Assembly (NCBI GenBank): GCA_964016885.1
Contig: OZ024741.1
Coordinates: 84,134,001 to 84,198,000, forward strand
Direction: 5' to 3'
Source: Eledone cirrhosa
Taxonomy: Eukaryota
Length of the DNA: 64,000 nucleotides
A program made the position numbers and the translations under genes. A model generated the notes under the pieces. The model was not told the origin of the DNA. It was given only the letters and a program-made list of their open reading frames with translations, and did not search any database. Below are positions 1 through 53,970 of the stretch, piece by piece (positions within the stretch are counted from its first letter, which is position 1; every line of letters starts with the position of its first letter).

Positions 1-283
1 TGAATGTCTGCATAACTAAAAGTTTGTAGATAGCAGCTGTTTTAGGTTATGTAACTGTTATAGAAACACGTGTCAATAAATTCCTTTCAACTAAACTGTA
101 TCCATTCAAATCTTTCTATTTTTCTCCGGATTACTTTTGGAACTACAACTGGAACCGTCGAGCAAACTCTACGTGAGCTGATAATCTACTGTGTGTAATA
201 TTTATATTACAACACAACGGAAAATACTGTATATTTACCTCCTGTAAAGTCGAGCAACCCATACAGCAAACGCAACCACAACA

Positions 284-2605
284 ATGGAAAAGCACTACCT
301 GGATATGTCACTCAAAAACATACCAACCCAAGGTAGAAAGGAATATTTATTGAGTATGATTAAAAAAACTAAAGAATTCATTCGACGTGTCAGGTGGAAA
401 ACGCTCCACTATGATAGAAGCCGTATGAACTCAACATTAGAAAGTGGTGTAAACAACAAATTCGGTTTTAGGACTTGTAAAAACCCACCCACCAACCCAC
501 TATTAGATGCACTTGAGCAGGACCTTATGAACTTAATCCTTAAAATTAAATTCAAAGGACGCAACACCAACAGCAAATTACAGAAAGATATAAAAAAACT
601 ACTGGACGACCTTAAAAACACCAAAGGAATTGTAGTAAAAGCGGACAAAACATCAAACCTGTACACTATGGATTGCACTACATACAACAACTTCATTCGA
701 AAAGAATTACATAAAAAATATAGAAAAACGAGTGAAGTAACCCTTAAGCACATCAATGATGAGGCATGCGAAATAGTGAAAAATCTCGGAATCGAAGATA
801 GGACAGGACCACTCTTACCGGCGGTACCCACCTTCAATCTTAAGGACCACAAGGTAAACTTTGATAATGACCCTAAAATTAGATTAATCTGCCCCTCTAA
901 ATCAGATATAGGTAAAATAAGCAAATATATCTTAGATAGAATCATCCCCCAAATTAAGGCTAAGGTTAACATTAAACACTGGGGGAAGACCCAAGAAGCA
1001 ATAAGATGGTTTAATAGCATTAGCAATAAGAATAAATCTAAGTTTATCCAGTTTGATATCGATGAATATTACTCATCGATATCACCTGAAACTTTGAATA
1101 GAGCCATTAAGTTTGCTAAGGATAACTCTGACCTTACAAACGATGAAATTAAGATTATATTAGAAGCTAGGAAAACTATAGTCAAATTTGAGAACAGTTA
1201 TTGGGTACGTAAAGATAGACCCTCTAACTTTGACATAACAATGGGCTCTAACGATTCGGCGGAAATAACTGATATTGTGGGGTTATTTATCGCCTTTAGA
1301 CTCCAGGAAAAATTCAGCAATCTCCACGGCGGAATATACCGCGACGATGTTCTCCTCCTAGCTAAAAACCTTAATAACCAAAAACTAGAAAAACTACGCA
1401 AAGATATAAGAAAACTACTACTCGAAATAGGACTAACTATAACATATGAATACAACCTTAAAGTAGTTAACTTCCTGGATGTCACACTCAATTTAAACTC
1501 TGGTTTGATTAAACCGTTTCATAAATTGAATGAAAATCTCAAATACGTAAATGTTGGGTCTAATCACCCCATCTCTATAATTAAATCTATCCCTAAAAAT
1601 ATTTCCCTTAGAATCTCGGGTCTATCTTCTAACATACAAGTATTTAAGGGACACGCCGAGTACTACGATAACGCCCTTAGTAAAGCAGGCTACCTCAACA
1701 AAATAGAGTACATAGATGGGAACAATCAAAACACCCAAAATAAATCCCACATAGGTAGATATAATAACACAACACCAAACCACACTTACTCCCATAGTAT
1801 GCACACCAGTAAACCAACAAACAAAACTAATAGAAAGCGATGCAAAGAGTACTTATGGTATAACCCCGAATACAATAGTTCCATTAGTACAAATTTACCA
1901 GTACTCTTCTTTAAAATAATTAAAAGACATTTTCCCACATCACACAAATACCACAAAATCCTAAACCCTACCACTATAAGACTGTCATACTCTACAGCGT
2001 TAAACCTTGAACAACACATAAAAAAGATCAATACTAGAAGGTTAAACGAAAACACTAAGAACTTAAGTACAAAGAATACAAAAAAAACAGTAGACAATAC
2101 ACTACAGAACATAAATAAACCACACCTAAGTTCGTCCGCAATACTACTCCAGAGAAAACCCAACGTACACAACTGTAACTGCACCTATCCTGACAACTGC
2201 CCCCTCGGCAATAACTGCCTGGAAAAAAATATTATTTATAAGTGTACCATTAAATCCGGAGGCAACGAGTGGTATTACGTGGGATCAACGGCAACATCGT
2301 TTAAATCTCGATTGTATAGGCATTCTTACTCAATAAAACACCAGAGCCAAAGAAATGTAACAACTTTAGCAGAAGAAGCTTGGACGCTCAGGGATAGCGA
2401 TCAAAAGTTTACCCTAAAATGGGAACAATTAGCTAAAACCCAAAGCTTTTCCAGGAGCCAAAATTTCTGCAAATTGTGTAATCTTGAGATTTATTACATA
2501 ATCACACACAAGAAGAAACTGCTGAATAACAGAATTGAACGAACATTATTCTGCCGTCACAGAACTAAAACCCTTTTTTCCCACTACAAGCCGAATATTA
2601 CATAA
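284..2605 (+). CDS. PLE (Naiad-type) reverse transcriptase + C-terminal GIY-YIG endonuclease, 773 aa, uninterrupted
   Basis: N-terminal SLKNIP..EY..K.KEFIRRVRWK; KADKT; LKDHK..F...PKIRLICP; FDIDEYY; MGSND; YRDD; FLDV; CNC...CPL.N.C; IIYKC...YVGST; CKLC; CRH. Confidence 0.95.
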   Translation: MEKHYLDMSLKNIPTQGRKEYLLSMIKKTKEFIRRVRWKTLHYDRSRMNSTLESGVNNKFGFRTCKNPPTNPLLDALEQDLMNLILKIKFKGRNTNSKLQKDIKKLLDDLKNTKGIVVKADKTSNLYTMDCTTYNNFIRKELHKKYRKTSEVTLKHINDEACEIVKNLGIEDRTGPLLPAVPTFNLKDHKVNFDNDPKIRLICPSKSDIGKISKYILDRIIPQIKAKVNIKHWGKTQEAIRWFNSISNKNKSKFIQFDIDEYYSSISPETLNRAIKFAKDNSDLTNDEIKIILEARKTIVKFENSYWVRKDRPSNFDITMGSNDSAEITDIVGLFIAFRLQEKFSNLHGGIYRDDVLLLAKNLNNQKLEKLRKDIRKLLLEIGLTITYEYNLKVVNFLDVTLNLNSGLIKPFHKLNENLKYVNVGSNHPISIIKSIPKNISLRISGLSSNIQVFKGHAEYYDNALSKAGYLNKIEYIDGNNQNTQNKSHIGRYNNTTPNHTYSHSMHTSKPTNKTNRKRCKEYLWYNPEYNSSISTNLPVLFFKIIKRHFPTSHKYHKILNPTTIRLSYSTALNLEQHIKKINTRRLNENTKNLSTKNTKKTVDNTLQNINKPHLSSSAILLQRKPNVHNCNCTYPDNCPLGNNCLEKNIIYKCTIKSGGNEWYYVGSTATSFKSRLYRHSYSIKHQSQRNVTTLAEEAWTLRDSDQKFTLKWEQLAKTQSFSRSQNFCKLCNLEIYYIITHKKKLLNNRIERTLFCRHRTKTLFSHYKPNIT

Positions 2606-3554: not shown

Positions 3555-3610
3555 ATTATTCTGATGAAATGACAGTAAATAATAACATTGAAATATTGAA
3601 TGTCTGCATA
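3555..3610 (+). ncRNA. Atypical hammerhead-like motif in Naiad pLTR
   Basis: CTGATGA-aatg...catt-GAAA; possible stem III ATAT/ATGT with GUC; stem I weak. Confidence 0.5.
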
Positions 3611-3879
3611 ACTAAAAGTTTGTAGATAGCAGCTGTTTTAGGTTATGTAACTGTTATAGAAACACGTGTCAATAAATTCCTTTCAACTAAACTGTATCCA
3701 TTCAAATCTTTCTATTTTTCTCCGGATTACTTTTGGAACTACAACTGGAACCGTCGAGCAAACTCTACGTGAGCTGATAATCTACTGTGTGTAATATTTA
3801 TATTACAACACAACGGAAAATACTGTATATTTACCTCCTGTAAAGTCGAGCAACCCATACAGCAAACGCAACCACAACA

Positions 3880-6201
3880 ATGGAAAAGCACTACCTGGAT
3901 ATGTCACTCAAAAACATACCAACCCAAGGTAGAAAGGAATATTTATTGAGTATGATTAAAAAAACTAAAGAATTCATTCGACGTGTCAGGTGGAAAACGC
4001 TCCACTATGATAGAAGCCGTATGAACTCAACATTAGAAAGTGGTGTAAACAACAAATTCGGTTTTAGGACTTGTAAAAACCCACCCACCAACCCACTATT
4101 AGATGCACTTGAGCAGGACCTTATGAACTTAATCCTTAAAATTAAATTCAAAGGACGCAACACCAACAGCAAATTACAGAAAGATATAAAAAAACTACTG
4201 GACGACCTTAAAAACACCAAAGGAATTGTAGTAAAAGCGGACAAAACATCAAACCTGTACACTATGGATTGCACTACATACAACAACTTCATTCGAAAAG
4301 AATTACATAAAAAATATAGAAAAACGAGTGAAGTAACCCTTAAGCACATCAATGATGAGGCATGCGAAATAGTGAAAAATCTCGGAATCGAAGATAGGAC
4401 AGGACCACTCTTACCGGCGGTACCCACCTTCAATCTTAAGGACCACAAGGTAAACTTTGATAATGACCCTAAAATTAGATTAATCTGCCCCTCTAAATCA
4501 GATATAGGTAAAATAAGCAAATATATCTTAGATAGAATCATCCCCCAAATTAAGGCTAAGGTTAACATTAAACACTGGGGGAAGACCCAAGAAGCAATAA
4601 GATGGTTTAATAGCATTAGCAATAAGAATAAATCTAAGTTTATCCAGTTTGATATCGATGAATATTACTCATCGATATCACCTGAAACTTTGAATAGAGC
4701 CATTAAGTTTGCTAAGGATAACTCTGACCTTACAAACGATGAAATTAAGATTATATTAGAAGCTAGGAAAACTATAGTCAAATTTGAGAACAGTTATTGG
4801 GTACGTAAAGATAGACCCTCTAACTTTGACATAACAATGGGCTCTAACGATTCGGCGGAAATAACTGATATTGTGGGGTTATTTATCGCCTTTAGACTCC
4901 AGGAAAAATTCAGCAATCTCCACGGCGGAATATACCGCGACGATGTTCTCCTCCTAGCTAAAAACCTTAATAACCAAAAACTAGAAAAACTACGCAAAGA
5001 TATAAGAAAACTACTACTCGAAATAGGACTAACTATAACATATGAATACAACCTTAAAGTAGTTAACTTCCTGGATGTCACACTCAATTTAAACTCTGGT
5101 TTGATTAAACCGTTTCATAAATTGAATGAAAATCTCAAATACGTAAATGTTGGGTCTAATCACCCCATCTCTATAATTAAATCTATCCCTAAAAATATTT
5201 CCCTTAGAATCTCGGGTCTATCTTCTAACATACAAGTATTTAAGGGACACGCCGAGTACTACGATAACGCCCTTAGTAAAGCAGGCTACCTCAACAAAAT
5301 AGAGTACATAGATGGGAACAATCAAAACACCCAAAATAAATCCCACATAGGTAGATATAATAACACAACACCAAACCACACTTACTCCCATAGTATGCAC
5401 ACCAGTAAACCAACAAACAAAACTAATAGAAAGCGATGCAAAGAGTACTTATGGTATAACCCCGAATACAATAGTTCCATTAGTACAAATTTACCAGTAC
5501 TCTTCTTTAAAATAATTAAAAGACATTTTCCCACATCACACAAATACCACAAAATCCTAAACCCTACCACTATAAGACTGTCATACTCTACAGCGTTAAA
5601 CCTTGAACAACACATAAAAAAGATCAATACTAGAAGGTTAAACGAAAACACTAAGAACTTAAGTACAAAGAATACAAAAAAAACAGTAGACAATACACTA
5701 CAGAACATAAATAAACCACACCTAAGTTCGTCCGCAATACTACTCCAGAGAAAACCCAACGTACACAACTGTAACTGCACCTATCCTGACAACTGCCCCC
5801 TCGGCAATAACTGCCTGGAAAAAAATATTATTTATAAGTGTACCATTAAATCCGGAGGCAACGAGTGGTATTACGTGGGATCAACGGCAACATCGTTTAA
5901 ATCTCGATTGTATAGGCATTCTTACTCAATAAAACACCAGAGCCAAAGAAATGTAACAACTTTAGCAGAAGAAGCTTGGACGCTCAGGGATAGCGATCAA
6001 AAGTTTACCCTAAAATGGGAACAATTAGCTAAAACCCAAAGCTTTTCCAGGAGCCAAAATTTCTGCAAATTGTGTAATCTTGAGATTTATTACATAATCA
6101 CACACAAGAAGAAACTGCTGAATAACAGAATTGAACGAACATTATTCTGCCGTCACAGAACTAAAACCCTTTTTTCCCACTACAAGCCGAATATTACATA
6201 A
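3880..6201 (+). CDS. Second copy of Naiad RT+GIY-YIG ORF, 773 aa
   Basis: Translation appears identical to 284-2605. Confidence 0.95.
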   Translation: MEKHYLDMSLKNIPTQGRKEYLLSMIKKTKEFIRRVRWKTLHYDRSRMNSTLESGVNNKFGFRTCKNPPTNPLLDALEQDLMNLILKIKFKGRNTNSKLQKDIKKLLDDLKNTKGIVVKADKTSNLYTMDCTTYNNFIRKELHKKYRKTSEVTLKHINDEACEIVKNLGIEDRTGPLLPAVPTFNLKDHKVNFDNDPKIRLICPSKSDIGKISKYILDRIIPQIKAKVNIKHWGKTQEAIRWFNSISNKNKSKFIQFDIDEYYSSISPETLNRAIKFAKDNSDLTNDEIKIILEARKTIVKFENSYWVRKDRPSNFDITMGSNDSAEITDIVGLFIAFRLQEKFSNLHGGIYRDDVLLLAKNLNNQKLEKLRKDIRKLLLEIGLTITYEYNLKVVNFLDVTLNLNSGLIKPFHKLNENLKYVNVGSNHPISIIKSIPKNISLRISGLSSNIQVFKGHAEYYDNALSKAGYLNKIEYIDGNNQNTQNKSHIGRYNNTTPNHTYSHSMHTSKPTNKTNRKRCKEYLWYNPEYNSSISTNLPVLFFKIIKRHFPTSHKYHKILNPTTIRLSYSTALNLEQHIKKINTRRLNENTKNLSTKNTKKTVDNTLQNINKPHLSSSAILLQRKPNVHNCNCTYPDNCPLGNNCLEKNIIYKCTIKSGGNEWYYVGSTATSFKSRLYRHSYSIKHQSQRNVTTLAEEAWTLRDSDQKFTLKWEQLAKTQSFSRSQNFCKLCNLEIYYIITHKKKLLNNRIERTLFCRHRTKTLFSHYKPNIT

Positions 6202-7329: not shown

Positions 7330-7395
<66 letters not shown>

Positions 7396-7399
<4 letters not shown>

Positions 7400-8077
7400 G
7401 GATTTAATGCTCTGAAATAGTGATATATATGTGTAAGAAAACATAGAATATTCGAAAATATTCTGTATGTTTATGATAAACATTTTGAAGACCTAATCGC
7501 TATAGAATAGAATACGTCACGTATTACAATTTGAGATTCTCGATAAAAGCAAGGGAAGTAACCTACGCGTTTCATTCTTATTTGAAATCATCAGGATTAC
7601 ATATCCAATGCTTTTATCGAGAATGACACAGCTAGAGACTTATAGAATACTTAGCTGTGTACAGGAACTGGTTTGAAAGAACGGTTGCCGGTCCGGCAGA
7701 AATTAGAATTTGGATTTAATGCTCTGAAATAGCGATATATATGTGAAGAAAACATAGAATATTCGAAAATATTCTGTATGTTTATAATAAACATTTTGAA
7801 GACCTAATCGCTATAGAATAGAATACGTCACGTATTACAATTTGAGATTCTCGATAAAAGCAAGGGAAGTAACCTACGCGATTCATTCTTATTTGAAATC
7901 ATCAGGTTACATATCCAATGCTTTTATCGAGAATGACACAGCTAGAGACTTATAGAATACTTAGCTGTGTACAGGAACTGGTTTGAAAGAGCGGTTGCCG
8001 GTCCGGCAGAAATTAGAATTTGGATGTAATGCTCTGAAATAGCGATATATATGTGAAGAAAACAGAATATTCGAAAA
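7396..8077 (-). mobile_element. Retrozyme-like family A, about 2.2 tandem units of ~310 bp
   Basis: Homologous to the 37.5-41.3 kb array; (TA)n on the left. Hammerheads at 7558-7600 (intact) and 7869-7910 (GAAA changed to GAAU). Confidence 0.88.
7558..7600 (-). ncRNA. Type I hammerhead ribozyme (family A)
   Basis: Minus strand: gtaatc CTGATGA t ttc aaataa gaa t GAAACGCGTA ggttac. Stem I 6 bp, palindromic stem III ACGCGT, GUA site. Confidence 0.9.
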
Positions 8078-8110
8078 TGTTTTCTTCACATAAAATACAC
8101 ACCGATATAC

Positions 8111-15345: not shown

Positions 15346-15911
15346 TTTTATGTGTGTATATGTGTTTGTGTGTGTGTTTATGGTTGCGCGTAAGTGTGTG
15401 AGTGAGTATGTGTTTTTTTGTTTTTTTTGTTTTTTTGTTTTTTTGTGAATGTGTCTGTTGATTTTTGGCATATAGTTGATTAGTTTAAGAGAAGTTCGAA
15501 GATAATAGTAAGATATGCACTCAGTATTTTGAATCTGTCTGCAGAATTCTCTAGACCTTTGTCACTTAGTAGAACCTTAATGACTTTAGCTTTTAAAGAA
15601 TCTCCCTTTTCTTTAATTCTATCGACCATGACTGACCCCCCACTGATTTTATAGACATCTGTTAGCTTAAGAGAAACTTATTGACAAGGAATGGTATGCC
15701 ATCCGGAACCTGTTTATAGAATTCTGTCTGCCTTTGTTACTCTAAAAACATAAATAAATATAAATAAAAATAAAAATAAACTATAGCTTTGTAGAATTAG
15801 CTTTTAATGAATTCCCTTTTCTATCAACCAATGACCTGCACCCATCCCACTCCCCACCCTCTCCTACCACTTGTAGAGACCTATAAATACCATATTTATT
15901 TTTTGATACCC

Positions 15912-15962
15912 AGATTCCTGATGATTTCTAATGAATGAAACAGTTCTAGTCCTGTAGAATCT
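15912..15962 (+). ncRNA. Type I hammerhead ribozyme in a solo PLE pLTR (about 15450-16045)
   Basis: agattc CTGATGA t ttc taat gaa t GAA ACAG ttctagtc CTGT A gaatct; followed about 80 nt later by (TA)n. Confidence 0.88.
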
Positions 15963-16044
15963 CATCTATATTAAAACTGTTATACTCTGCTATGTATTGA
16001 GTACCTTACTTACTGTGGTTACCTCCGATTCAACCCGGAATAAC

Positions 16045-16098
<54 letters not shown>

Positions 16099-16099
16099 T

Positions 16100-16130
<31 letters not shown>

Positions 16131-16496
16131 ATAATAATAAATTTGAAGACTAAAATCCAAAGAGTGCTCGATATGGATAAATATATATCAAATATATAAG
16201 AACCGTAGAGCAAATATTTATTAAAATAACAGATTAAAGTTTAAGCAAAATCGCTGCTTTCACCCTTAATGGGATCTTCTGAAACTAACAAAGTACATCT
16301 GTAAACGCAGAAGTGGATATTTCAAAAAACGCTGCAACCGGAGGAAGACGGAAAGACGATAATTTGGTTCGTGGAAACGTTCCCTTCACAAAACATACAG
16401 GTAATATATACTTACCTATGCAAATAAGCAATGGTATAAACATAACATATACTTAGCTACCACATCAAGACGTAAAATATCCACGTATAGATCGTA

Positions 16497-17111
16497 CTAT
16501 CCGTTAGGGTATAATGAGGGGCTGTAATACAGGAAAGCTTTGTGCAACTTATGTTTACAAGCCGAAATTGCCTCAGATATTTTGTTTAAGATGTGGTCTG
16601 TGGCGTAGAGTATTTCCAGGGCCTCAACGGCGCAGAGGTCACATGGTCTTTTATTTCCGTTATACGATCTAGCCCTAGCTAGGATCTCACAGTGTAACTC
16701 ATATTGGGTGTCGTTGTCTTTTAGACTCCAGATATAAGCTGAAAGTGACGTCATATTCCTTCTTAGAGGGTAACGAAAAGAATGGGTATGCATGTAAAGA
16801 CGCTGCTTGAATCTATTGGCGGTTAACCCTATGTAGGCCCTACGGGACGTGGGTGTATCAACCTTACATTTATAGACAATGTTACTAGAGAGGCATTTCC
16901 CGGATAGGATGCAATGATCCCGATTCCTACAATTACATTTAGTACTAACTACAGGGTTGCCCGTGTTCCTACGGCTAGGTAGTTTAGCTAAATTTGAAGC
17001 TGTGATGTTATGTGCAAGGTTAGGAGTTGTAGAGTAAGAAATTTTAATAGTATTTCTATTAAAAATGTTACTATATTTATGTGTAGCGGGAAAATGTTTC
17101 GTAATATCCAC
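16497..17111 (-). pseudogene. 5'-truncated Naiad-type GIY-YIG endonuclease region (family distinct from 284-2605)
   Basis: KHFP..HKY..IFN..TIKISYSTT; CNC...C.L.G.C; IVYKC; YIGLT; CDLC; CKH. Aligns with the C-terminus of the 773-aa ORF; lies between (TA)n. Confidence 0.88.
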
Positions 17112-17212
17112 TTCTGCGTTTACAGATTGACTTTGTTAGTTTCAGAAGATCCCGTTAAGGGTGAAAGCAGCGATTCTTTGATTGAACTTTAATCTGTTAT
17201 TTTAATAAATAA

Positions 17213-36225: not shown

Positions 36226-37479
36226 CTCTACTAAAGTATTGTGCACCTCACTTACTGAGGCTAAGCCCGATTGAACCCGGTACTCACACACACGCGCACA
36301 CACACACGCACACACACACACACATACACATACACACACACATACATACACACACACACACGCGCATATATATATGTATATATATATATTTGAAAATGGA
36401 AGTAAGTTTCTATATAAAACAGTTATTATACAGAAAATGTGACATTAGAAATAGCACGGAAAATATATTTAACGGTCTGTTTTTCTTTTTTTTTTTCCTT
36501 TCTTTGATTCGTGAAAATGACATTATTAAAAGATGAGAAGGAGAATTTTTTTTAAAAGAATGTTGTAATGGGTATAAAGTATATAAAGTATAACCGGTTT
36601 TGATGTATTAGTAAAATTCATCTTATCAAATGTGGAGTATTACAATTAAAAATAATTAAGAATTAAGATCTAAAAATTAGAGATTTAAAATTAAGTGTTG
36701 AGGTAAGTTATTTTCATCTTCCTTGTTAAGAAGGAGACTGGAAAAGTTGTGTGTACAGAGAGAGGTGTGTAGTCATGATAGTAGCGGCAGCAGTGTTGGT
36801 AGGTGTGTTTTTTCACATAGAACAAAATTGTTTTTAGGGACAAAGGAAATATTCTGTTCTTGTTGGTTTCATAAAGCTGCTTTTCACTATGTATTAAGCG
36901 TCCTTATAAGACACGCTACATTTTCTTTAATTATATATATATATAAATGGAATAGAATGAAACGAAATTTCATGTCTCACTCTTAGTACGGCACTGACTC
37001 AAATGTAAGTATGTATGTATACGTACATACATATATGTATACAGACGTACAGCAGCATGTATATATATATATATGGACGTATCAGTTTACCGAACATTTA
37101 TTATAATGTTCGCTTTGTTTGTTTGAAAACAAACGGACAGCCTGATTTACGCCGTACAGTGTTCAGGCAACCACGTCACCTTTTTGTTCAACACTGACAC
37201 AGGAACGATGTACTAGTTTCAAGCTTGTTGGCTATCGTCAGCACCGTATACCTTTCTGCCAGATGGTTGAACGTTCGAAAGTATATACTTTCCATATGAA
37301 AATTAACGGCTGAGCAGCCTAATTTGCATGTCGAGTGAGTTCAGTCGGCCAGGCGCACCGAAAACGATAAATGGAATAGAATGAAACGAAATTTCATTTC
37401 TCACTCTTATACAGCATTTACTCAAATGTAAGTATGTATGTATACGTACATACATATATGTATACAGACGTACAGTAGC

Positions 37480-37542
<63 letters not shown>

Positions 37543-37546
<4 letters not shown>

Positions 37547-40500
37547 TATAGACATAGAATATTCGAAAATATTCTGTATGTTTATAATAAACATTTTGAA
37601 GACCTAATCGCTATAGAATAGAATACGTCACGTATTACAATTAGATTCTCGATAAAAGCAAGGGAAGTAATCTACGCGTTTCATTCTTATTAGAAATCTT
37701 CAGGACTACATATCCAGTGCTTTTATCGAGAATGACACAGCTAGAGACTTATAGAATACTTAGCTGTGTACAGAAACTGGTTTGAAAGAGCGGTTGCCGG
37801 TCCGGCAGAAATTAGAAATTGGAATAAATGCTCTGAAATAGCGATATATATGTGAATATAGACATAGAATATTCGAAAATATTCTGTATGTTTATAATAA
37901 ACATTTTGAAGACCTAATCGCTATAGAATAGTACACAGCTAAGTATTCTATAAGTCTCTAGCTGTGTCATTCTCGATAAAAGCACTGGATATGTAGTCCT
38001 GAAGATTTCTAATAAGAATGAAACGCGTAGATTACTTCCCTTGCTTTTATCGAGAATCTAATTGTAATACGTGACGTATTCTATTCTATAGCGATTAGGT
38101 CTTCAAAATGTTTATTATAAACATACAGAATATTTTCGAATATTCTATGTCTATATTCACATATATATCGCTATTTCAGAGCATTTATTCCAATTTCTAA
38201 TTTCTGCCGGACCGGCAACCGCTCTTTCAAACCAGTTTCTGTACACAGCTAAGTATTCTATAAGTCTCTAGCTGTGTCATTCTCGATAAAAGCACTGGAT
38301 ATGTAGTCCTGAAGATTTCTAATAAGAATGAAACGCGTAGATTACTTCCCTTGCTTTTATCGAGAATCTAATTGTAATACGTGACGTATTCTATTCTATA
38401 GCGATTAGGTCTTCAAAATGTTTATTATAAACATACAGAATATTTTCGAATATTCTATGTCTATATTCACATATATATCGCTATTTCAGAGCATTTATTC
38501 CAATTTCTAATTTCTGCCGGACCGGCAACCGCTCTTTCAAACCAGTTTCTGTACACAGCTAAGTATTCTATAAGTCTCTAGCTGTGTCATTCTCGATAAA
38601 AGCACTGGATATGTAGTCCTGAAGATTTCTAATAAGAATGAAACGCGTAGATTACTTCCCTTGCTTTTATCGAGAATCTAATTGTAATACGTGACGTATT
38701 CTATTCTATAGCGATTAGGTCTTCAAAATGTTTATTATAAACATACAGAATATTTTCGAATATTCTATGTCTATATTCACATATATATCGCTATTTCAGA
38801 GCATTTATTCCAATTTCTAATTTCTGCCGGACCGGCAACCGCTCTTTCAAACCAGTTTCTGTACACAGCTAAGTATTCTATAAGTCTCTCTAGCTGTGTC
38901 ATTCTCGATAAAAGCACTGGATATGTAGTCCTGAAGATTTCTAATAAGAATGAAACGCGTAGATTACTTCCCTTGCTTTTATCGAGAATCTAATTGTAAT
39001 ACGTGACGTATTCTATTCTATAGCGATTAGGTCTTCAAAATGTTTATTATAAACATACAGAATATTTTCGAATATTCTATGTCTATATTCACATATATAT
39101 CGCTATTTCAGAGCATTTATTCCAATTTCTAATTTCTGCCGGACCGGCAACCGCTCTTTCAAACCAGTTTCTGTACACAGCTAAGTATTCTATAAGTCTC
39201 TAGCTGTGTCATTCTCGATAAAAGCACTGGATATGTAGTCCTGAAGATTTCTAATAAGAATGAAACGCGTAGATTACTTCCCTTGCTTTTATCGAGAATC
39301 TAATTGTAATACGTGACGTATTCTATTCTATAGCGATTAGGTCTTCAAAATGTTTATTATAAACATACAGAATATTTTCGAATATTCTATGTCTATATTC
39401 ACATATATATCGCTATTTCAGAGCATTTATTCCAATTTCTAACTTCTGCCGGACCGGCAACCGCTCTTTCAAACCAGTTTCTGTACACAGCTAAGTATTC
39501 TATAAGTCTCTAGCTGTGTCATTCTCGATAAAAGCACTGGATATGTAGTCCTGAAGATTTCTAATAAGAATGAAACGCGTAGATTACTTCCCTTGCTTTT
39601 ATCGAGAATCTAATTGTAATACGTGACGTATTCTATTCTATAGCGATTAGGTCTTCAAAATGTTTATTATAAACATACAGAATATTTTCGAATATTCTAT
39701 GTCTATATTCACATATATATCGCTATTTCAGAGCATTTATTCCAATTTCTAATTTCTGCCGGACCGGCAACCGCTCTTTCAAACCAGTTTCTTACACAGC
39801 TAAGTATTCTATAAGTCTCTAGCTGTGTCATTCTCGATAAAAGCACTGGATATGTAGTCCTGAAGATTTCTAATAAGAATGAAACGCGTAGATTACTTCC
39901 CTTGCTTTTATCGAGAATCTAATTGTAATACGTGACGTATTCTATTCTATAGCGATTAGGTCTTCAAAATGTTTATTATAAACATACAGAATATTTTCGA
40001 ATATTCTATGTCTATATTCACATATATATCGCTATTTCAGAGCATTTATTCCAATTTCTAATTTCTGCCGGACCGGCAACCGCTCTTTCAAACCAGTTTC
40101 TGTACACAGCTAAGTATTCTATAAGTCTCTAGCTGTGTCATTCTCGATAAAAGCACTGGATATGTAGTCCTGAAGATTTCTAATAAGAATGAAACGCGTA
40201 GATTACTTCCCTTGCTTTTATCGAGAATCTAATTGTAATACGTGACGTATTCTATTCTATAGCGATTAGGTCTTCAAAATGTTTATTATAAACATACAGA
40301 ATATTTTCGAATATTCTATGTCTATATTCACATATATATCGCTATTTCAGAGCATTTATTCCAATTTCTAATTTCTGCCGGACCGGCAACCGCTCTTTCA
40401 AACCAGTTTCTGTACACAGCTAAGTATTCTATAAGTCTCTAGCTGTGTCATTCTCGATAAAAGCACTGGATATGTAGTCCTGAAGATTTCTAATAAGAAT

Positions 40501-41301
40501 GAAACGCGTAGATTACTTCCCTTGCTTTTATCGAGAATCTAATTGTAATACGTGACGTATTCTATTCTATAGCGATTAGGTCTTCAAAATGTTTATTATA
40601 AACATACAGAATATTTTCGAATATTCTATGTCTATATTCACATATATATCGCTATTTCAGAGCATTTATTCCAATTTCTAATTTCTGCCGGACCGGCAAC
40701 CGCTCTTTCAAACCAGTTTCTGTTCACAGCTAAGTATTCTATAAGTCTCTAGCTGTGTCATTCTCGATAAAAGCACTGGATATGTAGTCCTGAAGATTTC
40801 TAATAAGAATGAAACGCGTAGATTACTTCCCTTGCTTTTATCGAGAATCTAATTGTAATACGTGACGTATTCTATTCTATAGCGATTAGGTCTTCAAAAT
40901 GTTTATTATAAACATACAGAATATTTTCGAATATTCTATGTCTATATTCACATATATATCGCTATTTCAGAGCATTTATTCCAACTTCTAATTTCTGCCG
41001 GACCGGCAACCGCTCTTTCAAACCAGTTTCTGTACACAGCTAAGTATTCTATAAGTCTCTAGCTGTGTCATTCTCGATAAAAGCACTGGATATGTGGTCC
41101 TGAAGATTTCTAATAAGAATGAAACGCGTAGATTACTTCCCTTGCTTTTATCGAGAATCTAATTGTAATACGTGACGTATTCTATTCTATAGCGATTAGG
41201 TCTTCAAAATGTTTATTATAAACATACAGAATATTTTCGAATATTCTATGTCTATATTCACATATATATCGCTATTTCAGAGCATTTATTCCAATTTCTA
41301 A
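37543..41301. mobile_element. Retrozyme-like family A array: 388-bp inverted arm plus 10.9 direct 310-bp units
   Basis: gtacacagct recurs at 37931, 38241, 38551, 38861, 39173 ... 41032; one hammerhead per unit; (TA)n on both sides. Confidence 0.93.
37993..38035 (+). ncRNA. Type I hammerhead (family A, first of 11 plus-strand copies; inverted copy 37667-37709)
   Basis: gtagtc CTGAAGA t ttc taataa gaa t GAAACGCGTA gattac; stem I extended by 15 bp ttctcgataaaagca/tgcttttatcgagaa. Confidence 0.92.
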
Positions 41302-41745
41302 TATATATATATATATACATACAGGCACACATATATATATGCACGTATCAGTTTACCGAACATTTATTATAATGTTCGCTTTGTTCGTTTGTAAACAAAC
41401 GGGCAGCCTGATTTACGCCGTACAGTGTTCAGGCAACCACGTAACCTTTTTGTTCAACACTGACACAGGAACGATGTACTAGTTTCAAGCTTGTTAGCTA
41501 TCGTCAGCACCGTATACCTTTCTGCCAGATGGTTGAACGTTCGAAAGTATATACTTTCCTTATGAAAATTAACGGCTGAGCAGCCTAATTTGCATGTCGA
41601 GTGAGTTCAGTCGGCCAGGCGCACCGAAAACGATAAATGGAATAGAATGAAACGAAATTTCATTTCTCACTCTTATACAGCACTTACTCAAATGTAAGTA
41701 TGTATGTATACGTACATACATATATGTATACAGACGTACAGTAGC

Positions 41746-41786
<41 letters not shown>

Positions 41787-42268
41787 CAGGCACACATATA
41801 TATATGCACGTATCAGTTTACCGAACAGTTATTATAATGTTCGCTTTGTTCGTTTGTAAACAAACGGACAGCCTGATTTACGCCGTACGGTGTTCAGGCA
41901 ACCACGTAACCTTTTTGTTCAACACTGACACAGGAACGATGTACTAGTTTCAAGCTTGTTAGCTATCGTCAGCACCGTATACCTTTCTGCCAGATGGTTG
42001 AACGTTCGAAAGTATATACTTTCCTTATGAAAATTAACGGTTGAACAGCCTAATTTGCATATCGAGTTAGTTCAGTTGGCCAGGCGCACCGAAAACGATA
42101 AATGGAATAGAATGAAACTTCCTGTGTCAGTGTTGAACAAAAAGATGACGTGGTTGCCTGAACACTGTACGGCCTAAATCAGGCTGTCCGTTTGTTTACA
42201 GACGAACAAAGCGAGCATTATAATAAATGTTCGGTAAACTGATACGTGCATATATATATGTGTGCCTG

Positions 42269-42386
<118 letters not shown>

Positions 42387-42627
42387 TATACATGCTACTG
42401 TACGTCTGTATACATATATGTATATACGTATACATACATACTTACATTTGAGTAAGTGCCGTACTAAGAGTGAGAAATGAAATCTCGTTTCATTCTATTC
42501 CATTTATCGTTTTCGGTGCGCCTGGCCGACTGAACTCACACGATATGCAAATTAGGCTGCTCAGCCGTTAATTTTCATACGGAAAGTATATACTTTCGAA
42601 CGTTCAACCATCTGGCAGAAAGGTATA

Positions 42628-42668
42628 CGGTGCTGACGATAGCTAACAAGCTTGAAACTAGTACATCG
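42628..42668 (+). ncRNA. Type I hammerhead (family B representative)
   Basis: cggtg CTGACGA t agct aaca agct t GAAACTAGTA catcg; palindromic stem III ACTAGT. Confidence 0.92.
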
Positions 42669-42826
42669 TTCCTGTGTCAGTGTTGAACAAAAAGGTGACG
42701 TGGTTGCCTAAACACTGTACGGCGTAAATCAGGCTGTCCGTTTGTTTACAAACGAACAAAGCGAACATTATAATAAATGTTCGGTAAACTGATACGTGCA
42801 TATATATATGTGTGCCTGTATGTATA

Positions 42827-42883
<57 letters not shown>

Positions 42884-43308
42884 GCTACTATACGTCTGTA
42901 TACATATATGTATGTACGTATACATACATACTTACATTTGAGTAAGTGCCGTACTAAGAGTGAGAAATGAAATTTCGTTTCATTCTATTCCATTTATCGT
43001 TTTCGGTGAGCCTGGCCGACTGAACTCAGTCGATATGCAAATTAGGCTGCTCAGCCGTTAATTTTCATAAGGAAAGTATATACTTTCGAACGTTCAACCA
43101 TCTGGCAGAAAGGTATACGGTGCTGACGATAGCTAACAAGCTTGAAACTAGTACATCGTTCCTGTGTCAGTGTTGAACAAAAAGGTGACGTGGTTGCCTG
43201 AACACTGTACGGCGTAAATCAGGTTGTCCGTTTGTTTACAAACGTACAAAACGAACATTATAATAAATGTTCGGTAAACTGATACGTGCATATATATATG
43301 TGTGCCTG

Positions 43309-43409
<101 letters not shown>

Positions 43410-43836
43410 GCTACTGTACGTGTGTATACATATATGTATGTACGTATACATACATACTTACATTTGAGTAAGTGCCGTACTAAGAGTGAGAAATGAAATC
43501 TCGTTTCATTCTATTCCATTTATCGTTTTCGGTGCGCCTGGCCGACTGAACTCACTCGATATGCAAATTAGGCTGCTCAGCCGTTAATTTTCATAAGGAA
43601 AGTATATACTTTCGAACGTTCAACCATCTGGCAGAAAGGTATACGGTGCTGACGATAGCTAACAAGTTTGAAACTAGTACATCGTTCCTGTGTCAGTGTT
43701 GAACAAAAAGGTCGCGTGGTTGCCTGAACACTCTACGGCGTAAATCAGGCTGTCCGTTTGTTTACAAACGAACAAAGCCAACATTATAATAAATGTACGG
43801 TAAACTGATACGTGCATATATATATATGTGTGCCTG

Positions 43837-43883
<47 letters not shown>

Positions 43884-44317
43884 GCTACTGTAGGTCTGTA
43901 CATATATATGTATGTACGTATACATACATACTTACATTTGAGTAAGTGCCGTCCTAAGAGTGAGAAATGAAATTTCGTTTCATTCTATTCCATTTATCGT
44001 TTTCGGTGCGCCTGGCCGACTGAACTCACTCGATATGCAAATTAGGCTGCTCAGCCGTTAATATTCATAAGGAAGTATATACTTTCGAACGTTCAACCAT
44101 CTGGCAGAAAGGTATACGGTGCTGACGATAGCTAACAAACTTGAAACTAGTACATCGTTCCTGTGTCAGTGTTGAACAAAAAGGTGACGTGGTTGCCTGA
44201 ACACTGCACGGCGTAAATCAGGATGTCCGTTTGTTTACTGACGAACAAAGCGAACATTATAATAAATGTTCGGTAAACTGATACGTGCATATATATATAT
44301 GTGTGCCTGTATGTATA

Positions 44318-44351
<34 letters not shown>

Positions 44352-44429
44352 CATGCTACTATACGTCTGTATACATATATGTATGTACGTATACATACAT
44401 ACTTACATATATATATATATATATATACA

Positions 44430-45879: not shown

Positions 45880-48800
45880 TTATCCTTCTTCCGAAGTGAT
45901 ATCGGAAGAAGTGACCAGACTATGGCCAGAGAGGAAGTTGCTTGACCTCAGACCTTTCAATCGTGTCCACCAAACAACCTCTTTCAACATGGCTATTACG
46001 CACAGAAATACCGCCTTTGCTTCCATTGTGAAGAGGGGAGGCGGCTTGATTGTCATCACGGACTCGGCGGTCAATCGAATCGGCGCCACCCGCAACAGCA
46101 GTCGTTCGGCGTAGCCCCACAGATCAGCCACGCTCGGACATTGCACCAATGCGTGCGCAACGGTTTCTTCGTGACGCACGCATCTAGGGCAAATCTTTTT
46201 CGAGGGATCCCTGCCCGGGCGCCCGTGTCTGTAGAGCCTCTCTCGAACGGGTAGAGCCCTCCGGTAGCACTGCCAGGCTAGTGACTTCTGGAAGTTGTCC
46301 ATTGGTCTCGGGCCGAAAGTCCTACCGAACATGCTGGCCAGTTCGTCCTCTTCCATGTCCAGCGACTCTCCAAGGGTGTCATCGCCCCTGCTAGCCACCA
46401 GCCCTCTATAGAATAATGAGGTGGATTCTCCACCGATGCCCTGGCCCGTTTGCCAGAGAGCCCTGAGCGCCTGGGCACACTCAGTGTGCCAGTCTCCCAG
46501 TTTTCCGGATCTTTGCTTGACCCAGGACTGCAGCTCGGTGAGCGAGACGAGTCTCGGAAAGGCTCGTTTCACGAACGGAGCCCACACCGGTTGACCAGTG
46601 AGGAATACCTGTAGGTGCCGTAGCTTTAATGCGTGCCTACTCATCATCAACCACGGCATCCTCAGCCCTCCTTTCGAAGGTTGTTGGCAGCAGATGGATC
46701 TTCTCACCATAGGAGGGCGCTTCTTCCAAAGAAATTGGAAGAGCATGCGTTCCATGGTGGTGAGTGTTTCCTTAGGGCAAGGCACGACAGTCAGGCGGTA
46801 GTAAGTGACGGACGCTATGTAAATGTTCGCCACCTCCGCCCGGCCTTTTAGGTACAGCTTACACTTGGCCCATTTCTGGGTTAGTGCAAACACCTTGTTC
46901 GTAACCTCGTCCCAGTTATTTTCCACCTGGAGGTCCGGTCCAAACCAGACCCCAAGCAACTTCACCGGGCCCTCCGTCCAGTGTCCGACGACACCGTCTG
47001 GAGGCATCGGTCTGCCTCTCCACGTTCTGAGTTGCAGCCCGATGGATTTTTCCCGGTTAAGTTTCGCTCCTGACAACCTTTCGAAATCCTCCAGTAGGGT
47101 ACCGATCGCCTCGATCTCCGAGTCGGTCGATACCATTACTGTTACGTCATCGGCGTAAGCCGACACCGCTTTGCTCAATCCTGGTTCCAGGGGGATACCC
47201 TGCAACAATTCCAACTTCCTCAGTAAAGGCTTCAGAGTCAATACGTACAGAAGGGAGGAGAGAGGGCACCCCTGTCGAATGGATCGTGTGATTTCGAACG
47301 GATTCGAAAGGTAGCCGTTCACCTTGATCCTAGAACAGATGTGGTTGCTATGTAAGGCAGTGATCCAGCCTCTGAAAACAGGACCGAACCCAGCCGCCGC
47401 TAGCACCGCATCCAGGTAACCATGGTCGACCCTATCGAAGGCCTTAGACTGATCCAAGTTGATCAGGGCCCCACCGAAGCCGGGTTTGTTGCCAACCCTC
47501 TCTATGATGTATCGCATGAGGTGGAGGTTATCGTGAATGGACCTGGATTGGATAGCACATGTCTGCGCATCTCCCACCAGGCCACCCACGACAAGCACCA
47601 ACCTCTTTGCTAACACCTTGGCCAAAATCTTTAACTCTGTGTTTAGCAGGGTTATGGGCCGAAAATTATTTATACTATCCCCTTGTTCTCGTCCTTCCTC
47701 ACCAGCGAGACTACGCCCTTGGCTACAAAACAAGGAATTCTCCCGTTCTGCTGCCAATTGCAGTAGACCGCTTCGAGGAGTTCGGAGAAGAAGACCGGCA
47801 TTGCTACATAAAGTTCGTAAGGTATACCATCGAGACCTGGAGATTTGCGTCTGCTGCATTGGCTCAGCGCATCCCCGATCTCATCAGCCGAGATTGGTCC
47901 CTCGCAGGACTCTGCCTCTTCGCTCGAGAGACGCAGCAGGCCGTCGAGGTATGGACCGAAATCCACGTCCCCGCCCGGACCCTCGCCTCCCCCGAATAAT
48001 CGGGTAAAGTGCCTTTGAAAGGCCTCGCACATCTGCTTAGGCTCCCGGATCACCCGTCCATCCTCGTCTTGCAAAGACCGGATGGTGGATCGATTTCCAC
48101 TCTTAACTTCTGTCACGCGGGCCCAGCCAACGGCTTTGGCCCCCTCATTACCTAGAGCACGTATTTTACTTCGAATGACGCAGCCTTCGTGCTTTGCATC
48201 GAAAAACTGGTTCAAGGCCGTCCTCGATGCCAGCACTCTGGCCACATCTTCGCTCTTGATTGCCTCTTCTAATTTACCTGTTAATTCTTTCTCGTTTCTA
48301 TTCCTATCGGCAGCTAACATCTTGCTATAACTTATTGCTTCTGTTCTAATCTCTCTTTTGAGAGATGCCCACCATCGGTTGTTGACGATTGCACCCGTCA
48401 ACCTCTCCTTAACTAATCTGCTAATCTGGTTTCTGTAAGTCTCTTTTGCCGGTAAAGACAGATTAAGTTTCCAGTAACTGGGACCCTGTTTATGTGTTTT
48501 CTCGAGATTGACTACGCAGGTCACTAATTTGTGGACAGTTTAATATGTCCCTATCCTTACTTCTAACTAAGAATCTATCTAAGTACGATCTAGATTGACC
48601 AGTGTGGTTCGTCCAATTCCAGGTTGGCACAGTTGGAAAATCTAGTCGATATCTATCGACTAAGTTAAAACGGTCGAGTAACCCTTTGAGGCTGTTACAC
48701 CCTCCTCTATTAGGACATGCTCCTGCATAGTCCCAACGTGCATCTAGGATGTCATTCCAATCCGCCGCTAGAAGCAGGGAACGCGACGTTCCCAGAAAAG

Positions 48801-49182
48801 TCTCCAAACGCTGGAAGAAGTCGGGCCGTTCAGCTCCTAAAGGGGAGTAGACGGCGACCAGTCTCAAGGCCGCACCTTCACTACTGCCAACGTCTAGCAC
48901 CAACAAACGACCCTCCGGGTCCGAGTGAACAACCTGTACGGCGAGACCCAGGTGTTTTTCCAGCAGTACGACAACCCCACCCCCACCTCCAGGTTGACAG
49001 AGAGATGCATGCACCTCAAAGTCATCGAAGGTAGGGGCCAGCTGCCGCACGACGCTGATCCGCGTCTCACAGATAACCATTACATTTATACCACGTGACC
49101 TGAGGTCATTTAGAAGCTTTGCTTGCTTCCAAGTTGAGCCCAGGCCACGTGCATTCAAAAATCCTACTTTTAACACATCCAT
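45880..49182 (-). pseudogene. Tx1-like ORF2 (APE endonuclease, RT, C-terminal CCHC), split over 3 frames
   Basis: LNARGL; ICET; EGRLL; RSYLDRF; YWKLN; KSPGLDG; RPITLLN; LDQSKAFDRV; RQGCPLS; YADD; CPRC...HALVQC. Confidence 0.92.
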
Positions 49183-49215
49183 GTGGGCGGCAAAGCCAAA
49201 GGAGAGTGTAGAGAC

Positions 49216-51115
49216 CTACCTTTCTGCTTCCCGGGGTTCGGGTCGCACGACTTCCATGGGGTCGGGGGTGTTGGGTGAAGGGGTGTCGTGTGGTGGTGTG
49301 GGGTCGTCAGTGTGTGGTGGGGTTGGGGTGTTTGGAGTTGTGTTGGGGAGGGGAAGGGGAGGGGGAAAGCTTTTTAGTAGGACGCGGTTTATGGGTTTGA
49401 CAGAGGGTGGTCCTACGTCCTCCTTAAAATCCTTTTTTAGTTTTTGGTAGAGGTTCATTGGGATCTTTATTAATTTTAAATGTGGGTAGTTTTCTGAAGA
49501 AACAAAGTTTACACCTTCGGTTTGTACCGAAGGATTATTGTTTATGAGTTCATTTAATTTATTATTGTTTCTGTTGATGTAAGTATAGTGTAATGTCTTT
49601 TTTTCGGATGGTGTGAGTGTTTCGAAGAGGGGAGGGGCAGTTTGGTTTTGTTTGTTGCTGGAGGGGTGTTTTCTGTTTTGTTGGATTGGGTTGACATTTG
49701 GGTAGGGGCTGTTTGGCCTTGTGTGTTTTGCACATGTTTTCTTTTTTTCCTTTTAATCTGTCTGAAGGACTCCGTTTCTTCCTCCGAATTCGTTGGGTTA
49801 TCTTCAGTGTTGGAGGGAAGAGGTATGTTTGCTTGTAATGTTTCCGTGTTGGTTTTCTTTGTGGGGGAGATGGATGTCACTATGTTAGACTGTGTTGTGT
49901 GTTGTGGTTGCGGTGGTTGTGTTGTTTCATTGAGTGAGGGGTTGGGTGGGACTGTATTTTGTTTTTGGGTAATGTGTTGTGACTGTTTGTGTTGTGGTGG
50001 TGGTGTAGTTTTACTGAGGGACGGGTTGGGTGAGACTGAGTTTTGTTGTTTGTTTATCTGTTGTGGTGGTGGTGGAGCTGGTGTTGGTAGCAGGGTTTTC
50101 TTTTTGTTGAGTTGGGGACAAGCCGCCTTCAGGTGCCCTCTACCTGCACAGATATGACAGGACGGCCTTCTCCCCTCCACGCTAATGTTTATATACCCGT
50201 GGCCCTCTAATAGGATTCTGTCGGGTATTTGGGCGATGCGTTCAGGCTTCATTTGCACTACAAGTTCTATACCTGTTCCACAGAACGCATTGCCTGTGGT
50301 TTTCCCAATGGAAATCACGTTGTCATTCGCTGGATCGATGAAGCCAGCTATGAGCCAGCAGTAGTCCACATCTGGCATCATTGCAGCCAGCCATATGCGC
50401 TGAGTTCTTTTACCCATATAAGATGGATAAAAGGTAAAATTTGTCGAACGAATCGGTGACAAAGCACATTTTTTTGCCGCCGATTCGTTCTTCATAATAA
50501 TCGCTAGGCTTCCATACAGTCTGTCTTTTCTCATGAAAGTGGTTTCATTAAGTACTTCTGTAAGTACTGCTTTGATTTCTGTTTGTGTTGGCTGATGAGG
50601 TTTTTTAGAAATGTTGTTGATGGTGCGGAAAACGACCGTCCCACTTTCAATATCTTTGGTGAGTACTTGAGGCATTTTACCGATAAAATACCATTTTCCC
50701 CTTCAGTTATGTATTGTTTGGCGTCTGTAATTCTTGGTTTCACATCTGAAATATTTTCAGGTATATATGTCAAAGATTTCTTTGTTGTTTGTGCAAATGA
50801 AATATTATTGGTGTTGACTTTGTCGTCTGCTTTGTTTTCTGTTATGATGCTGTTTTCAAATGTTATTTTTGTGTTTGTCGTGTCTTTGTTTGTGGTATTA
50901 ATATTGTCATGCAATTTTTCAAATTTTTTTTTTACGTTGTTGTAATCAATGTCCAGATTTGTGTTTTCGTCATTTTTCTCCGCAGATTCGTCTGTTTTTA
51001 TTTTATTTTTTCTTTCCTTCTCTATGACGTTAGTTGGGAAGGAAGGGGGGACTAAAGCGTGCGAGCTAACTACCGCTGTCCCCCCTCCACTATTTTCGTT
51101 AGCTTCGTTTAACAT
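49216..51115 (-). pseudogene. Tx1-like ORF1 (zinc knuckle CHICAGRGHLKAAC, P/T/Q-rich tail), split over 3 frames
   Basis: ORFs 50531-51115, 49554-50675 and 49216-49458 upstream of ORF2. Confidence 0.8.
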
Positions 51116-53623: not shown

Positions 53624-53830
<207 letters not shown>

Positions 53831-53859
53831 TATATGCATATATATATATATATCTACAT

Positions 53860-53942
<83 letters not shown>

Positions 53943-53970
53943 GCATATATATATGCATACATATATATAT

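Follow-up and report, generated by a model that had tools for sequence, protein, structure and literature searches.

How does a short repeat that encodes a ribozyme and no protein come to occupy a genome as long, nearly uniform tandem arrays, and which enzyme puts it there? The question is raised by a 64,000-nucleotide stretch of the Eledone cirrhosa genome (GCA_964016885.1, contig OZ024741.1, positions 84,134,001 to 84,198,000; hereafter the window), in which 310-bp hammerhead units, family A, lie within an insertion of another repeat, family B. Table 1 presents the coordinates.

Table 1. Family A locus, other elements of the window and sister families (loci with the prefix L lie elsewhere in the genome).
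Feature	Position	Strand	Description
Hydra-clade PLE frame (Hydra1)	248..2605	+	785 codons; RT, then GIY-YIG-type endonuclease
Second tandem copy of Hydra frame	3844..6201	+	identical protein; TA-rich site at the element end, 7269
Older family A copy	7392..8081	-	2.2 units, 93% identical, one arm, distal-site end in (TA)n
Family B retrozyme insertion (host element)	36943..44408	.	~470-490-bp units, two-armed
Family B inverted arm	36943-42118		interrupted by family A
Family B direct arm	42119-44408		
Left (TA)n target	37483..37543	.	within family B unit
Family A inverted arm	37534..37931	-	1.28 units, haplotype as direct arm
Hammerhead core of inverted arm	37667..37709	-	12th in the insertion
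Head-to-head inner junction	37931..37931	.	1-nt overlap
Family A direct arm	37931..41302	+	10.9 units of 310 bp; TRF period 310, 99% matches
First of 11 type I hammerhead cores	37993..38035	+	predicted cut after GUA at 38029
Single complete monomer	38030..38339	+	predicted 310-nt RNA
Further predicted cuts	after 38339, 38649, 38961, 39271, 39581, 39890, 40200, 40510, 40820, 41130	+	
Right (TA)n target	41302..41318	.	remainder of that family B unit
Older family A copy	63754..64000	-	1.1 units, ~97 bases beyond window, one arm, distal-site end
Sister family A2	L156:1624-1939		316 bp
Sister family A3	L189:1527-1844		318 bp
Further relative of family A	L266:3078-3310		

The family A array and its predicted RNA

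A sequence-only reading of the window had placed an array of near-identical 310-bp ribozyme units at 37931..41301. TRF (10.9 copies) and eleven hammerhead cores confirm the array; its extent was drawn too narrowly, as the inverted arm at 37534-37931 had been overlooked. The units of the direct arm are 99.8% identical, and all 11 of its cores lie on the + strand, giving 10 complete cleavage-to-cleavage units together with partial units of 99 and 172 nt. When the unit is numbered from the base directly 3' of the predicted cut (base 1), the direct arm has its 5' end at base 212 and its 3' end at a distal site, base ~172. The inverted arm has its 5' end at base 52 and its 3' end at a proximal site, bases 129-139, where it merges with the TA target. 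The entire insertion is nested in a TA tract that belongs to a family B unit. Five of the ten complete units are identical and the remaining five carry six variants, all private to single units, in line with the star-like pattern suggested earlier. Read-through of 37534-38330 would yield a perfect ~400-bp RNA hairpin, which may be a source of small RNA.

Each hammerhead is made up of a 6-bp stem I, a 4-bp stem II with a basal U.U mismatch as in axolotl HHR_Amex2, and a palindromic 6-nt helix III ahead of GUA. Stem I continues by way of two internal loops into a 15-bp helix. This helix and the five hairpin arms named in the sequence-only reading are exact reverse complements, and two of the hairpins, written there with a 1-nt loop, were folded with 3-nt loops. 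Metazoan hammerheads of this form, with a short palindromic helix III, function as dimers (PMC4209133). The monomer folds better than shuffled sequences both as a linear molecule (z = -4.5; 0/100 shuffles as good) and as the structured circle predicted at the outset (z = -5.3; 0/60 shuffles as good). An Rfam search with family A returned no matches at the gathering score, the best sub-threshold match being Hammerhead_HH9 (17 bits against the 52 needed, E 0.29). The longest ATG frame in the unit is 30 aa, and the claim that there is no ORF therefore stands.

Hammerhead viroids are small, structured, non-coding RNAs with ribozymes in both polarities and autonomous RNA replication. Family A differs from them in being genome-encoded and low in GC, in having a ribozyme of one polarity and in giving no sign of RNA-to-RNA replication; a search of the antisense strand of the unit found no hammerhead core. 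Together with a GC content of 34% and 58% of bases paired, this makes "viroid-like" a loose description only. With the metazoan non-LTR retrozymes, such as newt satellite 2 and axolotl Rtz331/353, family A shares tandem units in the range of 150-450 bp, a type I hammerhead, GC under 45%, the lack of an ORF and of LTRs, dispersed loci and target duplications >4 bp. Its identity as a retrozyme is thus supported, with cleavage predicted; circRNAs are published for other retrozymes and predicted for family A.

The older copies in the window keep all six pairs of stem I, as had been stated, but by way of two one-sided changes (G.U to A-U and U-A to U.G) and no two-sided one. Counting pairs on a MAFFT alignment was rejected because stem I fell out of register, and helices were scripted per family instead. 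Sister families A2 (~63% identical to family A) and A3, along with a further relative, have the end-site region in common with family A and differ from it in their ribozymes. In A2 and A3, the ribozyme fold is kept despite the different sequence, with a longer palindromic helix III and the known U3-A8 core variant in both. The window also holds a young hammerhead repeat at 15450-16045 with a core at 15912-15962 and a stable stem III; 40/40 scored matches are 99-100% identical, and the repeat is found in tandem at ~1.08-kb spacing on contig C1. A 28-nt likeness to its hammerhead, which came up in the search for a helper, was judged too weak.

Two arms and two fixed ends across the genome

The 3.0-Gb genome was searched with a single unit; 40 of 43 candidates were scored and 150 of 184 matches listed, making the counts that follow lower bounds. 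Mapping covered 41 family A loci, comprising 38 from the matches listed and the three in the window; one further locus surfaced later. Thirty-six of the 41 are head-to-head and two-armed, and five are not. One two-armed locus was omitted for an end in an N gap; the remaining 35 without exception pair an arm that stops at unit base 134-139 with an arm that stops at 164-173. Dropping a readable locus whose end adjoins an N gap leaves the rule at 34/34. Under independent 50:50 ends, 35/35 has p ~3e-11, and the proximal and distal ends are balanced between left and right sides (18:17). Since the AT tract of the unit itself blends into the target, the proximal figure marks an upper limit; the proximal-distal spacing of ~26-43 nt matches the "tail" of Penelope-like elements (PLEs). 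Outer ends lie nearly always in (TA)n, which they adjoin directly without an LTR. Target duplications are clear at two of 36 loci, C1d (11 bp) and C3h (13 bp); most other loci are uninformative in (TA)n, and long "duplications" inside such tracts were disregarded.

Turning to the inner ends, arm lengths range from 0.2 to 26 units and those of the two arms are uncorrelated (rho -0.07). At least two units are found in 45 of 72 arms, a count that excludes a third arm at one locus, and such arms lie on both sides of the inversion. The mean overlap at the inner joint is 3.3 nt over 32 junctions, where random joins would give 0.77, and 15/32 overlaps are >=4 nt where 2.5% is expected. These overlaps derive from BLAST ends, which may contain mismatches and inflate microhomology; 4/36 junctions, with gaps >12 nt that reflect the edges of the mapping, were omitted. 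Of 66 inner arm ends, 13 fall at unit bases 205-213 (window 38234-38242), an interval picked post hoc, where 1.9 are expected. This interval lies at the foot of a long hairpin and includes the recurrently mutating base 209; it is likely an RT pause point. An identical 148/209 junction recurs in five loci of differing haplotype.

The end sites of A2 and A3 (140-141 and 166-173) are the same two as in family A. Among A2 two-armed loci, read by eye, 14/17 have one end of each kind and three have a non-standard end. A first look found 1809 family B candidates genome-wide. The arms of this family stop at unit bases 274-276 and 334, and 5/10 two-armed loci read by eye pair the two kinds of end; an internal TA tract makes the remaining loci irregular. 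Each family B unit carries an octamer motif, which we take to be an snRNA-type promoter element.

Priming, template and competing explanations

On balance, these observations favor family A as a young non-LTR retrozyme whose two-armed (TA)n insertions likely arise as the RT/endonuclease of a Penelope-like element, probably a Hydra-clade one, primes from both cut strands on a predicted 310-nt circle. Array transcripts would be cut by their hammerheads acting as dimers, by virtue of the palindromic helix III, and circularised by a host ligase if published retrozymes are a guide. To judge from the few target duplications, the endonuclease would make a staggered double-strand cut of ~11-13 nt in an AT-rich target. 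The two 3' ends may then prime at the two positions observed, unit bases 129-139 for one and 164-173 for its partner. Each RT would circle the template for an independent number of turns, after which the two cDNA ends would join by the microhomology seen at the joints and may prime each other's second strand. In vitro, the Poseidon PLE uses two RT start sites and extends both target strands (PMC11167929).

Both arms of a locus carry its fixed variants, and differences between arms are almost all single-unit events. Some of these fixed variants, for example at C1b, C417, C99 and C1e, are absent from all other sampled loci. Within-locus substitutions over 90 kb comprise 120 singletons and seven that are multi-unit. 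Twenty-one of the singletons fall at base 209, where part of the signal is real and part a junction or alignment artefact; aside from that site, nine singleton substitutions recur, each in two loci. Uniform arms with one haplotype are expected from passage via a single monomer sequence that is then copied over many turns, although a common haplotype points to one template sequence and not to one molecule. The earlier proposal that the array arose in a single retrotransposition event is supported, and the genome-wide insertion anatomy strengthens it. As a sign of circles, 340-letter contigs that return on themselves at 310 letters (runs X4, X5 and X6) were rejected, since tandem DNA gives the same.

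A two-ended PLE insertion could instead be templated by a linear, multimeric RNA transcribed from a source array and left uncut. The family A circle is a prediction, and cleavage is expected to be weak where helix III is short and palindromic, as here (PMC4209133). For Poseidon in vitro, ribozyme-dead RNA inserts equally well, RT starts internally, cleavage is dispensable and the main template is uncut RNA (PMC11167929), while 8/9 predicted retrozyme dimers of Xenopus were uncleaved in vitro (bioRxiv 10.64898/2026.07.22.740005). However, a linear template would transmit heterogeneity from unit to unit, whereas arrays of up to 26 units are near-uniform even as subfamilies differ by up to ~5% fixed changes. 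The scarcity of recurrent singletons and the preservation of the ribozyme fold across diverged sister families also weigh against this explanation, which we regard as unlikely.

Growth of short PLE-type insertions into satellite DNA, via unequal crossing-over or slippage, is a route proposed elsewhere (bioRxiv 10.64898/2026.07.22.740005), and the one long A2 array analysed is in keeping with it: in L229 (~26 units, 25 read) six units are exactly duplicated and many variants are common to several units, a satellite-like pattern of growth after insertion that speaks against rolling-circle copying alone. For family A, the same process is improbable as the origin of the arrays, given that only 7/127 minor substitutions are common to at least two units, that multi-unit arms flank the inversion on both sides and that 6/6 variants in the window array are private.

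Self-priming, in which a single cDNA folds back so that the direct arm is the template of the inverted one, has been proposed for palindromic PLE junctions (PMC3846280). Three of 33 junctions in family A are nearly symmetric, a point in its favor, but ~2.2 are expected by chance; the longer arm may be either one (19 versus 16 loci), arm lengths are uncorrelated and, in the window, two variants borne by the final complete unit of the direct arm are missing at the same bases of the inverted arm. Self-priming is thereby largely refuted and highly improbable. The one-end-each rule, the single haplotype on both arms and the microhomology at the joints together favor two-ended priming over a fold-back. 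Least probable is an assembly artefact: near-identical tandem and inverted repeats assemble poorly, N gaps adjoin two loci and some private indels may be errors, but the 35 loci with fixed ends are spread over many contigs, target duplications and subfamily structure are present, and contigs of run X1 (which may be the same sample) exit the unit into TA at 38168 (10 contigs) and 38199 (one).

A candidate helper and the relation to known systems

The 785-codon frame contains RWK and DKT motifs, a CxCX5C linker, and CxxC and CxH near its end, with a (TA)n target. The Hydra clade is described as an RT followed by a C-terminal endonuclease with RWK, DKT and CxCX5C and as targeting (TA)n, while Naiads have an N-terminal GIY-YIG endonuclease and a DKA motif (PMC8557442). 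The element had been called an intact Naiad; with its endonuclease C-terminal and DKT in place of DKA, it is assigned to the Hydra clade, by motif rather than by tree. Pfam gave no match on the 785-codon protein, and on 23 aligned relatives it gave RVT_1 in four and GIY-YIG in three; a PDB sequence search gave weak RT matches only. Hydra1 is young and abundant, with 150/150 scored matches 98-100% identical in the endonuclease part, and several matches lie in 785-codon open frames. Published Hydra families are few. Where the Hydra clade has a canonical hammerhead in its pLTR, the element in the window has a core-like motif (3556-3629) with doubtful stems I and III. Across the frames of the window, Pfam matches were confined to a frameshifted LINE-type element on the - strand (45880-50702) with an endonuclease, RT, zf-RVT and an upstream ORF1-like frame.

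In this analysis, a Hydra-clade helper for family A is plausible. Both share (TA)n targeting (PMC8557442), and Hydra-clade elements of this genome share the two-arm, one-end-each rule: Hydra1 has one end of each kind in 8/8 two-armed loci with both ends visible, in a sample of 20 fetched loci of which eight were chosen for paired opposite matches. In contrast, the Hydra1 tail is ~115 nt against ~30 in family A (~90-135 nt across four Hydra-like families), and no common sequence was detected. Profile and BLAST comparison of A, A2 and A3 with PLE termini at 107 loci, drawn from four families (three Hydra-like, one Neptune-type), found no homology, all matches being separate retrozyme insertions. 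The Neptune-type family has an opposite-strand terminus in 0/19 loci with a located terminus (20 fetched). The second Hydra-like copy in the window, at 16130-17205, is 5'-truncated; its inverted arm is short, and it has a ~90-nt tail between two (TA)n tracts. No retrozyme-homologous pLTR was found in it, and a short likeness at 16.1-17.2 kb was judged too weak (E 0.15, from a very small set). A tandem pair of 5'-truncated, frameshifted Neptune-type copies lies at 53759-60650; this family has a single end site and no inverted terminus.

The anatomy of family A is the "inverted copy plus tail" of PLEs. As in EN+ PLE insertions (PMC8557442 Fig. 2; PMC3846280; PMC11167929), a 5'-truncated inverted copy lies head-to-head, a 30-40-nt tail marks one end, the target duplication is short, targets are AT-rich and there are two RT start sites; inverted copy, tail and target duplication are described in the first two of these sources. 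Family A differs in lacking an ORF, in having two multi-unit arms and in carrying the tail, optional in PLEs, on exactly one arm in 35/35 loci. In L1 twin priming, both target strands prime cDNA and the inverted arms join by microhomology. There the second start is internal and variable, whereas in family A both putative starts are at fixed positions and it is the inner ends that differ between loci.

For non-LTR retrozymes, circular RNAs, host ligation and a rolling-circle RT model have been published (Cervera and de la Pena 2020, PMC7229834), and a PLE link has been drawn from co-occurrence and pLTR homology (Li et al., bioRxiv 10.64898/2026.07.22.740005). With type I hammerhead tandems, circRNAs and proposed PLE mobilisation already in these two sources, the earlier idea of an undescribed helper/circRNA system does not hold: family A belongs to the published retrozyme class, and is neither a new system nor tied to Naiads. 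The sequence family appears new as far as compared. The two head-to-head arms, two fixed ends and (TA)n targeting are undescribed in the available portions of the retrozyme papers. Two-armed retrozyme insertions with fixed ends, and strict pairing of those ends, were absent from the literature consulted, although subscription journals, supplements and repeat databases may describe them.

Retrozyme integration and the origin of the PLE inverted arm and tail are called undefined in the available text of PMC8557442 and PMC11167929. Since family A is very young and its arms are long, its insertion record is unusually clean, and its value lies in this anatomy, which makes an open mechanistic question testable. 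An in vitro test could draw on this one genome for both components, the short RNA and the Hydra protein, whose element is young and has an open frame. A more specific and tentative proposal is twin rolling-circle reverse transcription, in which a dimeric Hydra-clade PLE protein would cut (TA)n on both strands, start cDNAs at two fixed sites on the same circle and join these multi-turn products by microhomology. If true, this process would explain the inverted-copy and tail structure of PLEs, and the insertion anatomy would tie animal retrozymes to PLEs and provide a minimal test substrate of 310 nt.
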